From Synechococcus sp. (GTDB lineage Bacteria; Cyanobacteriota; Cyanobacteriia; Thermostichales; PCC-7336): a stretch of DNA of 15,794 nucleotides. Below, piece by piece: positions 7,317-15,489 of the stretch. The notes below the pieces were generated by a model. It saw only the letters and a list, made by a program, of their open reading frames with translations. It was not told the DNA's origin and ran no database searches. A program made the position numbers and the translations under genes. Location of the stretch: positions 1 through 15,794 of the forward strand of contig JBFRWN010000105.1 of the NCBI GenBank assembly GCA_051439605.1, written 5' to 3'. Within the stretch, counting starts at the first letter, position 1. Each line of letters opens with the position of its first letter.

Positions 7317-9260
7317 TTATACATCTAATTCAGCCAATTCCATCCAGCGCTCGGTGGCTCGATCAATTTCCTCGGTTAATGTCGCCAATTGTTCGGACAA
7401 CTTTTGCACTTCGTCGTAGCTGCTGGGAGGATTGTTATAGAGCGTCTTTTCAAGTATCGTTTTCTGTTCTTCCAGTTCGGGAATTTTATTCTCTAGCTCC
7501 TCATATTCCCTGCGTTGGTAATTCGACAAGCGTTTCCGTTTTGGGGTCCCTCTTGAGTTATCACCTCCTGCCTTACAAGGCACTTTCTTATCTTTCGGAG
7601 CCTTGGCCGCCACTTCAGCTGCATCCGCTTTGGCTTTGTCCTCTTCAGCCCGTTTGAAATCGAGATATACAGAGTAATTACCGGGATACTGTCGCACCTT
7701 CCCGCCAGGTTCTAATGCAAAGATGCGATTAACCGTGCGATCGAGAAAATAGCGATCGTGGGAGACGGCGATCGCGCAGCCATTAAATTCTTGCAAATAC
7801 TCTTCCAACACTGACAACGTCTGCACGTCCAGATCGTTGGTGGGCTCATCCAAGATCAGAACGTTTGGAGCTTCCATCAGCACCTTAAGCAAGAACAAGC
7901 GACGCTTTTCCCCCCCCGAAAGCTTGTGAATGGGGGTGTATTGCTGGTTGCCATCAAACAAAAACCGTTCCAACATTTGGGAGGCGCTGATTTGCCCACC
8001 GTCCGCAGTTGTGACAAAGGAGGCCACGTCTTTGATGTACTCGATGACACGCTGTTGCTGTTGAGCGGCGGACAGTAGGTTCTCGGAGTGCTGATCGAAA
8101 TATCCGATGTGAATGGTCGAGCCAATGTCTACAGTTCCCTCGTCAGGTTGGAGGCGACCGGTGATGATGTTGAGCAATGTAGACTTCCCGGCCCCGTTTC
8201 CACCGATGATGCCAATTCGATCTTGAGGGCTGAATTCGTAGGTGAAATCGCAAATCAGCTGCCGATCGCCAAAAGACTGACTCACCCCCTGCAGCTCGAT
8301 CGTCTTTTTGCCAATCCGGCGACCGGGAGTGTCAATATCTACGCGTCCTTGCACCTCCTTAAACTCGCGATTTTTCATTTCGTGATAGCGATCGATGCGG
8401 GCCTTTTGCTTGGTGCTGCGGGCTTTTGCCCCCCGACGCAGCCAGGCCAGTTCTCGCCGCAACACCCCCTGAAGTTTCTTCTGACTGGAGGCGATCGCCT
8501 CCTCTTGGGCGGCTTTTTTCTCTAGGTAATAGGAATAATTTCCCGAATAGGTGTAAAGATCGGCTCGGTCAATTTCCAAAATGCGATTGGTGACGCGATC
8601 GAGAAAGTAGCGATCGTGGGTGATCAAGAGAATGGACCCGCGATAGTCATCTAAATAGGTTTGCAGCCATTCCACTGACTCTGCATCTAGATGGTTGGTG
8701 GGCTCGTCCATCAGCAACAGGTCGGGCTCGGACAGCAGCGCTGTCGCCAAGGCAATCCGCTTGCGATATCCTCCGGACAGAGTGCCGACTTTGACGTCAA
8801 AATCGTCGATGCCGAGTTTGCTAAGCACGATCTTGGCTTTGGTCTCCAGCCCCCAAGCATCTGCCTGTTCCATCTGTTCGGTGATGCTGGAAAGACGTCG
8901 CATCAGGGTATCCAGTTGGTCACCGCTAGCCTGGGCCATCTTGTGGGACAGGTCTTCGTACTGGCGCACCAGCTGCATTTGTTCGCTGCTGTCGGCAAAA
9001 ATTTGTTCGAGAACGGTATTGTTCTCGTCCACATCCGGTTGCTGGGGCAAGTAGACAATCCGAGCCCCCGATCGCACCAGGCGCTGACCGCCGTCGATGG
9101 GTTCCAATCCCGCCAGCATCTTTAATAAGGTCGATTTGCCGGAGCCGTTGACTCCAATCAAGCCCACTTTCTCGTTCTCCCCCACGCTGAAGCTGGCTTC
9201 CCGCAGGATTTCCTTAATACCAAAGTCTTTGCGAATGGATTGCAGGGTGAGGATGCTCAT
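7317..9260 (-). CDS. uup: ABC-F family ATPase, Uup/YfmR-like
   Basis: Two ABC domains (GVNGSGKST / LSGGYRKR / LMDEPTNHLD and GGNGAGKST / LSGGEKRR / ILDEPTNDLD), linker ELAWLRRGAKARSTKQKARI, C-terminal coiled-coil hairpin ending ERWMELAE. No TM segments. Confidence 0.9.
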   Translation of the reverse strand: MSILTLQSIRKDFGIKEILREASFSVGENEKVGLIGVNGSGKSTLLKMLAGLEPIDGGQRLVRSGARIVYLPQQPDVDENNTVLEQIFADSSEQMQLVRQYEDLSHKMAQASGDQLDTLMRRLSSITEQMEQADAWGLETKAKIVLSKLGIDDFDVKVGTLSGGYRKRIALATALLSEPDLLLMDEPTNHLDAESVEWLQTYLDDYRGSILLITHDRYFLDRVTNRILEIDRADLYTYSGNYSYYLEKKAAQEEAIASSQKKLQGVLRRELAWLRRGAKARSTKQKARIDRYHEMKNREFKEVQGRVDIDTPGRRIGKKTIELQGVSQSFGDRQLICDFTYEFSPQDRIGIIGGNGAGKSTLLNIITGRLQPDEGTVDIGSTIHIGYFDQHSENLLSAAQQQQRVIEYIKDVASFVTTADGGQISASQMLERFLFDGNQQYTPIHKLSGGEKRRLFLLKVLMEAPNVLILDEPTNDLDVQTLSVLEEYLQEFNGCAIAVSHDRYFLDRTVNRIFALEPGGKVRQYPGNYSVYLDFKRAEEDKAKADAAEVAAKAPKDKKVPCKAGGDNSRGTPKRKRLSNYQRREYEELENKIPELEEQKTILEKTLYNNPPSSYDEVQKLSEQLATLTEEIDRATERWMELAELDV

Positions 9261-12848: not shown

Positions 12849-13053
12849 AGGCGATCGCATTTACATGAAAATATGGTTAGATTGGCTACATTTGCGCAGA
12901 GCTACTTGCCTACCTCCTTTGAATTATTATGAGGCTAATTTACTAGCAAAGGAATAAAGGCGGATCTAGGCATGGGTTGATTTCAAAGTAATGACCTATT
13001 GCCAATAAATCTGAACCATAGCTTTATTCACTTATGAGATACGTTTCCTATGG

Positions 13054-13389
13054 CTAGCAGTATAGTATCTCCTCAAGTAACGGAGCTAATTCTTTAACAT
13101 ACTGCTCGCATTGCAATCTTTTCTGTAAGGCATTCACAAAACTGGCATACCCAGGAAACATACTTGAGTAAACTGCCTGCAAAGCTGACACCGTTCGCTT
13201 GGTATCTTGGCTTAGAAAATCATCGATGTGCTGTGATTCTGGAGAGTTATTGCGATCGCAAGCGAAGCGGATATCTCCTGCCTCTCGAACAAAATTCTTG
13301 GGATTTAGACCGGCAAAATAACTGTATGCAATCGCCGCGTAGGACGCCTCAGGAGTGATTTGGAAATTGGGTTTTGCGTTCTTAGGCAT
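13054..13389 (-). CDS. Hypothetical protein (111 aa)
   Basis: ATG-started ORF 65 nt downstream of the SDR on the same strand, with helical-looking composition. No motif recognised. Confidence 0.55.
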   Translation of the reverse strand: MPKNAKPNFQITPEASYAAIAYSYFAGLNPKNFVREAGDIRFACDRNNSPESQHIDDFLSQDTKRTVSALQAVYSSMFPGYASFVNALQKRLQCEQYVKELAPLLEEILYC

Positions 13390-13454: not shown

Positions 13455-14291
13455 CTAAGAATCATTGACTCCCAGCCATAACCGTTGTCGCGGGTTTGCG
13501 TGCCTGAGTCTTTGCTGCTTTCTGGGCAAAGGGGCCGCCATACGCACCATCAGCTCCACTACTCCGGGCATGAGGCGATTGAGCCATACTGTCGCATAGC
13601 TCTGCCACCCCACCAGAATTTCGGAAGACCCCTGCTGCAATCCGCGTATCAAAGCGCTGGCTACCTTTTCCGGAGTGACCGGAACCACCCACTTAAACCA
13701 ATCAAAGTCATCCACCATATCTGTCCTGGTCAAAGTTGGTAATAACGCCACAACCTGTACATTGTGTCCGGCTAACTCGCTACGCAATGCTTGGGTAAAC
13801 CCGAGCAGAGCGAACTTCGTTGCCGAATAGGTAGACATGGTGGGAGCCGCCACCTTTCCCATCAGACTCGAGACGTTGACGATCGCCCCGTCTTCCATCG
13901 CTGCCATCCTGCGAGCTATGACGCGGGTGATGGCGTACACCCCCATTAAGTTAGTGCTCAATTCTGCCTGCATCTGAGGGGTTTGAGCCTGCAAGAACGG
14001 AGTTTGATGAGCCACTCCGGCGGAGTTGACCAACAGGTGAATCGGTCCATAATCTCTCCAGGCCTGGGCAATTTCGATATCAACATCCACCACCCGTGCT
14101 AGCTCGAGGGATAGCGGAATCGCTTCCGCGCCCAAGGCTTCGACTTCAGATGCGGTCTCGGCTAGCCGCTCTCGATTGCGCGCCACTAACACCAAGCGCT
14201 TGATACCGTTGCGTGCGAGTTCGAGGGAGATCGCCCGACCGATCCCTTTTGATGCTCCGGTGACCAGAGCTGTTTTTCCCAATACATTCAT
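13455..14291 (-). CDS. Classical short-chain dehydrogenase/reductase (~278 aa), probably NADP(H)-preferring
   Basis: TALVTGASKGIG, VAR, LVNSAG, IVNVSS and YSATK. Start placed at ATG 14291 (MNVLGK) because GAGGTG lies 6 nt upstream. Confidence 0.93.
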   Translation of the reverse strand: MNVLGKTALVTGASKGIGRAISLELARNGIKRLVLVARNRERLAETASEVEALGAEAIPLSLELARVVDVDIEIAQAWRDYGPIHLLVNSAGVAHQTPFLQAQTPQMQAELSTNLMGVYAITRVIARRMAAMEDGAIVNVSSLMGKVAAPTMSTYSATKFALLGFTQALRSELAGHNVQVVALLPTLTRTDMVDDFDWFKWVVPVTPEKVASALIRGLQQGSSEILVGWQSYATVWLNRLMPGVVELMVRMAAPLPRKQQRLRHANPRQRLWLGVNDS

Positions 14292-14631
14292 TACGAACAC
14301 CTCAAAGAAAGAGCGCAAAAACACTTCTGGCAAACATGTAAATAGGCTGCCAAGAAGATGAGCGATCGCGCTCTATTTACAAAGCGACAAACTGTCGCAC
14401 GAAACTGATGCTTAGAAAGAAGTAAGCAAGAAACATACACACTTGGAGCAGAACTTTCCGATAAACGTCTCGATGAGTTTGATTTAGAAGAACCCTCTTA
14501 GACGCTAAGAATTCCTATCTCCGGTCGAGCCGGGAACTGAGGAATACCATTGATTGAGTGAATCGGAAAGTAAAATTATGGATGGACAACTGACGGATTG
14601 AATCAGCAGTCAGCGGATGCTAATCGCTGTA

Positions 14632-14688
14632 TTAGGCTGTTCTAGAATCGGTGGTGCGGTCAGTTAATTCATTGACGTAGCGAAGCAT
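14632..14688 (-). CDS. Putative 18-aa micro-ORF / leader peptide MLRYVNELTDRTTDSRTA
   Basis: Minus strand reads TAAGGAGG-acgcccatc-ATG: a perfect 8-nt SD 9 nt before the ATG, with TAA at 14634-14632. A promoter-like element lies about 55 nt upstream. Below the ORF-track length cutoff. Confidence 0.55.
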   Translation of the reverse strand: MLRYVNELTDRTTDSRTA

Positions 14689-14741
14689 GATGGGCGTCCT
14701 CCTTAAGAGTAAGGATTGGCTGTAAGGTATTTACGCTTATA

Positions 14742-14783
14742 ACGCTATCAAGGGGATCGAAATCGTGCAACATTTTTTAATAC
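14742..14783 (-). promoter_or_regulatory. Sigma70-type promoter for the micro-ORF/SDR transcript
   Basis: TTGCAC (14770-14765), 17 nt, TAGCGT (14747-14742), with an extended -10 TG. A degenerate NtcA-like GTA-N8-TGT (14783-14770) ends 22 nt before the -10. Confidence 0.55.
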
Positions 14784-15051
14784 ATTAATGCCGCCAATCT
14801 AACTGCTATTTATAGCAAGTAAAAATGAGCACGGCTCAATTGTGGATAACACTTAACGAACTATCAATTGCTAAAACCGGTAATTTTACGGTTGGAATTA
14901 TAGAAAGTGGAGTTTAAGTCAAAATAGAAATTTCTTATCCTCGTCTGAAAGATTTGACAGAACAGTTTGCCTGGAGGAAAGATGCTAGACACAATTTTGA
15001 AAATAACAAGAGAATGTAGATAGAAACACAGATCGTTAAGCTCAGCTTCGG

Positions 15052-15489
15052 TCAGGCGATCGCCTGCTCTATGCCTGCCAATGCCGCACGTGCCGCCTGC
15101 ACATCGTAGGGAAACGGCAAGCGCATCGGGCGATAATCGCGCTCATCTGGCTCTCCGTGCCGCAGGACTGCATTAACTAGCACACAGGGCTCATCGCTCG
15201 GATTAATCGCCCCGTGCGGAACTCCCGGCGGAATCTCTACCACGACTGGTTGCGACTGACACAGAGGGATGTAGTCATACTGACGATCTCGCAATACCAC
15301 CAACACCATGCTGCCCCGCACTACCAACAGTTGATCCGTCTGGAAGTGATGCACAAACAAGGCATCTTGCGTGTGGGGAGCGACCTGCACCAACATAGTT
15401 TCATGGCTTGACTGCGGCGTATAAAACTCCGTCATTGCACTCTTGAAGGAGTCCAAAACGCGAACCTTAACATGACAGACAAGACTCAT
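15052..15489 (-). CDS. RmlC-like cupin (dTDP-4-dehydrorhamnose 3,5-epimerase-like fold)
   Basis: Cupin motif 1 LFVHHFQTDQLLVVRG and motif 2 EIPPGVPHGAIN, with AGGAG RBS upstream. Substrate unknown. Confidence 0.82.
   Translation of the reverse strand: MSLVCHVKVRVLDSFKSAMTEFYTPQSSHETMLVQVAPHTQDALFVHHFQTDQLLVVRGSMVLVVLRDRQYDYIPLCQSQPVVVEIPPGVPHGAINPSDEPCVLVNAVLRHGEPDERDYRPMRLPFPYDVQAARAALAGIEQAIA

Follow-up and report, generated by a model that had tools for sequence, protein, structure and literature searches.

The window analysed here, the whole 15,794-nt stretch of Synechococcus sp. DNA, carries on its minus strand a gene for an SDR-family NAD(P)-dependent oxidoreductase (SDR), preceded by a 760-nt intergenic gap in which a mini-ORF of 18 codons sits ~340 nt upstream of this same-strand gene (Table 1). 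A promoter, an SD, an ATG and an 18-codon ORF had been described on the minus strand in an earlier note made from the letters of the window, and a check of the sequence found all four in place. A TG precedes the -10 TAGCGT by two bases on the minus strand and, from the position of the promoter, transcription is predicted to start at ~14737-14734 (-); a generic sigma-70 scan of the window did not list this promoter. The note had also called this the best SD match that it noticed in the window. The match to TAAGGAGG is indeed exact, but an identical TAAGGAGG occurs at 8361(-) within an ABC-F gene. There are 88 TAAGGAGG sites in the window's own genome, of which 14 have an ATG 4-11 nt downstream, and 10 of those 14 open ORFs of 31 aa or fewer. 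In this genome chance often places a short ORF behind a strong SD, and the feature alone is not above chance; the mini-ORF rises above it because it is conserved in relatives. Rfam 15 covariance models gave no match within 14200-15100 of the window (best E 0.26), and none in a set of 9 loci.

Table 1. Features of the SDR leader and gene, in coordinates of the window.
Feature	Position	Strand	Description
Upstream block, possible extra regulator site	14790..14811	-	From alignment; conserved only in the three genus-level copies
Candidate HLR1-like (RpaB-type) imperfect direct repeat	14764..14781	-	11/16 matches; overlaps the -35 box
Promoter	14742..14770	-	-35 TTGCAC 14770-14765, 17-nt spacer, extended -10 TGnTAGCGT (TAGCGT 14747-14742)
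SD-containing 6-bp hairpin TCCTTA/TAAGGA	14698..14715	-	Predicted; kept in 3/3 genus copies, without covariation
SD TAAGGAGG	14705-14698	-	9 nt ahead of ATG 14688
Leader mini-ORF, 18 codons + TAA	14632..14688	-	ATG 14688, MLRYVNELTDRTTDSRTA, TAA 14634-14632
Two short post-stop stems	14588..14629	-	Predicted folds of 3 copies; genus-level only, no U-tail
Long irregular hairpin just ahead of the SDR ribosome-binding site	14310..14374	-	Predicted; second family-wide cis element
SDR-family NAD(P)-dependent oxidoreductase, 278 aa	13455..14291	-	Own SD at 14303-14300

The SDR matches generic profiles, below the top curated cut-offs, and does not reach the PRK07454 cut-off either. Its nearest solved chains are FabG-type (E 6.5e-35), its named relatives are all cyanobacterial, and none of its neighbour genes is shared beyond clades. 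Directly after the SDR lies a 111-aa ORF (13054-13389 (-)) with no Pfam or NCBIfam match, and AAGGAGG occurs further downstream at 12919; upstream of the promoter is a gene for a 145-aa cupin-domain protein (15052-15489 (-); Cupin_2, E 2.9e-6).

When 41 genomes were searched at the DNA level with the stretch 14588-14822, only two other places matched, one upstream of a paralogous SDR in the same genome, where the copy is 73% identical, and one in the congener G001. In both copies the promoter, the SD and the ATG are retained and the ORF stops after 18 codons (MFHPNSRLTDCATDSGAA, MFHHLTPITDCFTDIETA). Across the 4.9 Mb of the window's own genome, the promoter matrix scored 35-37 at exactly two sites, both preceding SDRs, with the next best site at 14.7. 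This genome holds two promoter-leader-SDR units (contigs C105 and C90) with proteins that are 81% identical; most sampled genomes carry one. A stand-alone copy in G001 was considered and rejected, as the SDR gene to which it belongs is split there at codon 2 by an insertion element, which has inverted ends and a TA duplication (L002:1-130; L191 contig end). Pairwise differences among the three genus copies of the mini-ORF fall at the first, second and third codon positions in the proportions 9/6/3, 9/5/5 and 7/6/4, with third positions differing less than first, and amount to 3 synonymous versus 30 non-synonymous codon differences; for the SDR paralogues the corresponding differences by position are 34/17/123. 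The residues common to the genus copies (L/I-T-D and T-D) fall on bases predicted to pair with post-stop sequence, where GTCAGTT (14594-14588) could, in the predicted folds of all three copies, form a local stem or instead pair with AACTGAC (14665-14659) of the mini-ORF. The four Thr, the three Arg and the D-R-T/D-S-R-T echo to which the earlier note had drawn attention are not conserved in the other two copies.

Of 201 genomes in the class, 78 have a close orthologue of the SDR. We collected 84 protein-anchored upstream regions, the G001 leader among them, and retained 83 after dropping one of 21 nt; named genomes, scanned with the protein as seed, yielded no more than 3 loci, and two named plasmid SDR copies were left out of scoring. 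The promoter matrix, which was trained on the same regions that it scored, exceeded 14 in 71 of the 83 regions, shuffles reaching at most 10.3, and 10 of the 12 promoter-less regions come from one genus with a different promoter. A promoter-only pattern matched 68 of 301 genomes (reversed control, 0) and had an SDR nearby in 28 of the 30 loci fetched. Among 13 pattern matches in metagenomes an SDR lay within 800 nt in 10, each with a short ORF on inspection. With a strong SD defined as a duplex of <= -6 kcal/mol, an SD-led ATG was found 25-95 nt after the promoter in 37 of the 71 promoter-bearing loci, versus a mean of 3.95 and a maximum of 6 in 20 shuffles. Outside the window's genus both are present in 34 of 68 promoter-bearing loci, and by a manual count from genome labels the 37 loci span 18 families. 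In 20 of the 37, the -10 box is followed by the ATG at 50-54 nt, and the ORF is 9-15 aa long in 27 (null 19%) and exactly 12 in 14 (null 2.8%). The 34 promoter-bearing loci that failed this SD and ATG test, 23 of them with leaders of >200 nt, are a mix of weaker homologous ORFs, decayed ORFs and short leaders without any; as some promoter-bearing loci lack any ORF, the ORF is dispensable. Overall, the promoter-SD-ORF unit is tied to the SDR gene and is conserved in promoter, SD, ATG, stop and length. All 30 loci of the clade with the other promoter have an SD-led ORF of their own, which is 10 codons long in 27. In this clade (L132-L161, family f5) a covarying post-stop hairpin lies behind the 10-codon ORF, and in the compact loci L090, L092, L096 and L098 an ORF of 11-14 codons ends ~40-50 nt ahead of the SDR start.

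Selection on the mini-ORF was analysed in three clades sampled by DNA similarity, made up of 30 loci (141 of 151 genomes matching, Nostocaceae-like by names), 30 loci (47 of 61) and 29 new loci (49 of 81); in the third clade the ORF is missing from 8 of the 29 loci, and the analysis was confined to the 14 that matched best. As the clade loci are the best DNA matches to an ORF-containing query, overall conservation is inflated, and related genomes are not independent; sampling by DNA similarity should not, by itself, produce the selection ratios that were observed. Calculated on modal-length copies only (22/30, 27/30 and 9/14), pN/pS of the mini-ORF was 1.05, 1.01 and 0.87 in the three clades, versus 0.19, 0.10 and 0.24 for the SDR. 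Tree parsimony over 74 loci placed 88, 82 and 85 changes at the three codon positions of the mini-ORF, and information per codon position was flat (0.36/0.25/0.34 bits). The ATG underwent 0 changes across the 74 loci of the three clades, in which four-fold SDR sites change 3.4-5.6 times each. Of 12 changes affecting the stop, 9 retained it through a swap among TAA, TGA and TAG (p 0.002 if the neutral chance is 0.3, and 0.02 if it is 0.42), or 8 of 11 on a stricter count, one swap lying in a frameshifted copy; two stop changes after earlier stops were left out. Premature stops numbered 2 versus 7.8 expected (p 0.016), and the indels, which were read by eye, comprised three 3-nt deletions and one 1-nt insertion (frameshift) event. 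Truncated, frameshifted and read-through copies make up 7 of 30 in one clade, and over the 74 loci the body of the mini-ORF evolves ~40% more slowly than four-fold SDR sites. As the ATG is invariant and stops are swapped for stops while pN/pS is ~1 and codon periodicity is lacking, translation of the mini-ORF appears to be under selection, whereas its residues hardly seem to matter.

The peptides themselves differ between clades, where they are unrelated in sequence, show radical replacements and have different C-termini. No conserved run of regulatory codons was found across the mini-ORFs compared, the RGSGR motif is absent from all peptides inspected, and the ~1.5-kb flanks of the loci hold no shared maturation, modification or export genes. 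A loose M-L-Y-I start recurs in ORFs of 9-14 aa (L2 in 13, Y3 in 10, I4 in 14), with synonymous variants present; this weak amino-acid signal at residues 2-4 leaves some room for a possible peptide role. On these sequence comparisons the mini-ORF does not look like a functional small protein, a RiPP or signalling precursor, or an arrest peptide, and the functional microprotein, signalling or precursor peptide proposed in the earlier note finds no backing in pN/pS, codon position or neighbouring genes. Its reading of the sequence as a leader fares better: the unit is conserved, is probably translated and probably forms a leader ORF of the downstream SDR.

An imperfect octamer direct repeat with a 2-nt spacer lies over the -35 box and a second ~29 nt upstream; they resemble the HLR1 motif of RpaB-controlled promoters as defined in PMC6525291. 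HLR1-like matches average 10.3/16 at the -35 site, which includes the -35 box itself, and 9.6/16 at the upstream repeat, both versus 8.2 after letter shuffling; at the -35 site the real count is the higher one in 69 of 71 loci. In the clade with the other promoter, 27 of 30 loci reach at least 14/16 as a raw count. Light/redox control of the promoter by RpaB is plausible from these matches, an assignment that is weakened because the first site includes the -35 hexamer and because, unlike the promoters of PMC6525291 as far as its available text goes, the sites here average ~10/16 and lie at the borders of the windows published for repression and activation.

In the RNA, the first 130 nt of the leader, with the ORF region, show no more structure than expected by chance (mean z -0.16 over 46 loci). 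Folding single strands of the window region gave z between -0.6 and +0.7, and a consensus fold of the leader in two clades recovered hardly any common structure. The 130 nt that immediately precede the SDR are more strongly folded than shuffles (z averages -1.4 and is below zero in 68 of 83), and a perfect helix of at least 7 bp ends just ahead of the SDR's SD in 26 of 83 loci versus 6.9 expected, its arms changing between clades but staying complementary. The 3' arm of this SDR-proximal hairpin is predicted to be able to pair alternatively over the SDR's SD, a possible translational switch. The hairpin may also be among the conserved RNA structures of 202 cyanobacterial genomes in the supplement of PMC12873609. 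A thermometer built on the SD-hairpin was rejected as a family feature, the SD having an unpaired probability of 0.30 versus 0.31 when shuffled (lower in 23 of 37 loci).

We tentatively favour, at somewhat less than an even chance, a reading in which the conserved short ORF at the 5' end of the long SDR leader is translated and acts in cis, through ribosome loading that shields the mRNA. The SD, start and stop are conserved upstream of a same-strand gene, as in other cis-acting uORFs, and we infer that transcription runs from the promoter into the SDR, that the ORF is translated and that this stabilises the message. A ribosome would load ~45 nt from the predicted transcript start and would shield the mRNA from 5'-end-dependent decay, with the peptide likely a by-product; the early stop would free the ribosome ahead of the hairpin gating the SDR start, and the level of SDR mRNA would then follow initiation capacity. 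RpaB might, less securely, add a light/redox input at the promoter. This stabilising role is favoured because no terminator exceeds chance, Rho is absent, no codon run is conserved, the SDR start is unchanged when the ORF is blocked in silico, RNase J and RNase E are both encoded in the window's own genome, and Bacillus provides a precedent. There, in the available text of PMC3997798, downstream RNA is stabilised by a strong SD close to the 5' end, though less well versus RNase E, and not even a start codon is needed. As in the Bacillus cryIIIA, ermC and atpE leaders (same source), a strong SD lies near the predicted 5' end of a long leader in an RNase J-bearing host; unlike in those, the start, the stop and a fixed length of 9-18 codons are conserved here, the host also has RNase E, and the stabilisation is one that we infer. 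Several points speak against our reading. Of the 71 promoter-bearing loci 34 fail the SD and ATG test, and truncated, frameshifted and read-through copies exist. A pure stabiliser would need no fixed length, 5' ribosomes would by analogy guard poorly against the RNase E present here, and the ~40% slowdown of the ORF body is explained by the model only for the first codons.

The fixed length of the ORF and the fixed position of its stop would be accounted for if ribosome transit or termination on the mini-ORF steered co-transcriptional folding or RNA polymerase, and so gated read-through or the SDR-proximal hairpin. Such a translation-sensing attenuator, which we consider rather unlikely, would also suit ORF codons 8-10, predicted in the three genus copies to be able to pair alternatively with the post-stop stem, and the real hairpin at the SDR start with its 3' arm able to cover the SD; the DUF1127 uORF is a precedent, so far as the accessible portion of 10.1101/2025.01.31.635925 goes. 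The search for its parts speaks against it. A simple hairpin-plus-U scan within 150 nt past the stop found terminator-like sites in 3 of 36 loci versus 3.0 in shuffles, Rho is absent from the window's own genome, and no regulatory codons are conserved. Promoter-to-SDR distance ranges from 202 to 831 nt, and in silico blocking of the mini-ORF shifted the opening energy of the SDR start by a median of +0.1 kcal/mol in 28 loci (equilibrium model only), the shift being above 1 kcal/mol in no more than 5 of the 28, with either sign; no coupling of ribosome to SDR start was seen in this equilibrium folding. A bolder idea, which we hold to be distinctly unlikely, is that of an ancient class-wide device built on an ORF whose length is fixed and whose sequence is free. 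Such an ORF would act as a timer or ruler for ribosomes and would link translation capacity to a light/redox promoter and to an RNA gate downstream, with no need of Rho, a terminator or an arrest peptide. If true, this would be a mode of uORF control outside current attenuation models.

Other readings place the function in the RNA or the peptide itself. The dual-function sRNA of the earlier note survives as an improbable rival, in which the part from the promoter to past the stop would accumulate as an sRNA of its own, stabilised by ribosomes and pairing in trans. It would fit the conservation of nucleotides irrespective of codon position, at ~40% below the four-fold rate, the low third-position divergence of the genus trio, and a conserved block that stops just past the post-stop stems; it is opposed by the lack of any terminator beyond chance past the ORF, of an Rfam match and of a seed common to the clades, and by near-constant linkage to the SDR (in 28 of 30 promoter loci), the apparently lone G001 copy belonging to an insertion-split SDR. 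We give little credence to a trans-acting micropeptide with loose sequence needs: the recurring M-L-Y-I start with its synonymous variants would suit one, and an overlapping RNA constraint can push pN/pS towards 1, but the values of 0.87-1.05 hold in three clades, replacements are radical, the clade peptides are unrelated, information is flat over codon positions, and neither shared maturation or export neighbours nor an RGSGR motif was found. Highly improbable, finally, is an untranslated RNA or DNA motif that resembles an ORF, or the antisense RNA that the earlier note had suggested for the plus strand, with the anti-SD serving as its seed. The frequency with which a strong SD and a short ORF meet by chance in this genome would favour a look-alike, against which stand the invariant ATG, the stop-to-stop swaps, the deficit of nonsense changes and the frame-keeping deletions, all on the minus strand. 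The antisense RNA is countered by what is conserved, namely a promoter facing the minus strand, the ATG and the in-frame stop.

Amino-acid attenuators of the trpL, thrL and hisL type likewise place a short ORF behind an SD in the leader of a metabolic gene; here, unlike in these, no conserved codon run and no terminator or antiterminator was found, and the gene downstream encodes no known biosynthetic enzyme. Arrest peptides of the TnaC, ErmCL and SpeFL type are short cis-acting leader ORFs with a conserved stop position that depend on conserved residues. The stop position is conserved here as well, but pN/pS is ~1 and the C-termini vary by clade. Closer in kind are Sinorhizobium uORFs (the DUF1127 leader of 10.1101/2025.01.31.635925 and the uRBS set of PMC13285730, each in its available part), which share with the mini-ORF pyrimidine-rich early codons and in which, as seems to hold here, translation counts and its product does not. 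They differ from the present case, where there is no Rho, conservation is class-wide and, in most loci, the mini-ORF neither overlaps nor approaches the main start; as it lies far from that start in most loci, neither coupling nor occlusion would apply. Cis-acting leader ORFs are barely described in cyanobacteria and none was found in the literature for this gene; no published description of an SDR-leader mini-ORF was found in a literature that included the available text of PMC8632094, PMC12873609 and 10.64898/2025.12.20.695498. Five short motifs are absent from six supplements of PMC4734099, although the model-strain copy may differ from these motifs.

The mini-ORF has persisted from an early-branching lineage through to the heterocyst formers, and its natural losses and truncations would offer a clean test of the role of a 5' ribosome, and it illustrates that a perfect SD with a conserved short ORF is no proof of a functional microprotein. 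Should the stabiliser model be true, the unit would be a portable expression part for cyanobacterial engineering. SliP4, NblD and AtpTheta, as described in the accessible parts of PMC11848123 and PMC12850537, also arise from an unannotated short ORF behind an HLR1-like promoter, but are at least 37 aa long and act as proteins, whereas the mini-ORF shows no amino-acid selection. In three metagenome loci (L087:884-1015, L094 and L095) the promoter motif drives, instead of an SDR leader, an ORF of 41-43 aa with a strong SD and one hydrophobic stretch. These ORFs have no Pfam match, match only unnamed Atlas clusters at 0.82-0.85, and resemble SliP4-type proteins by description only.
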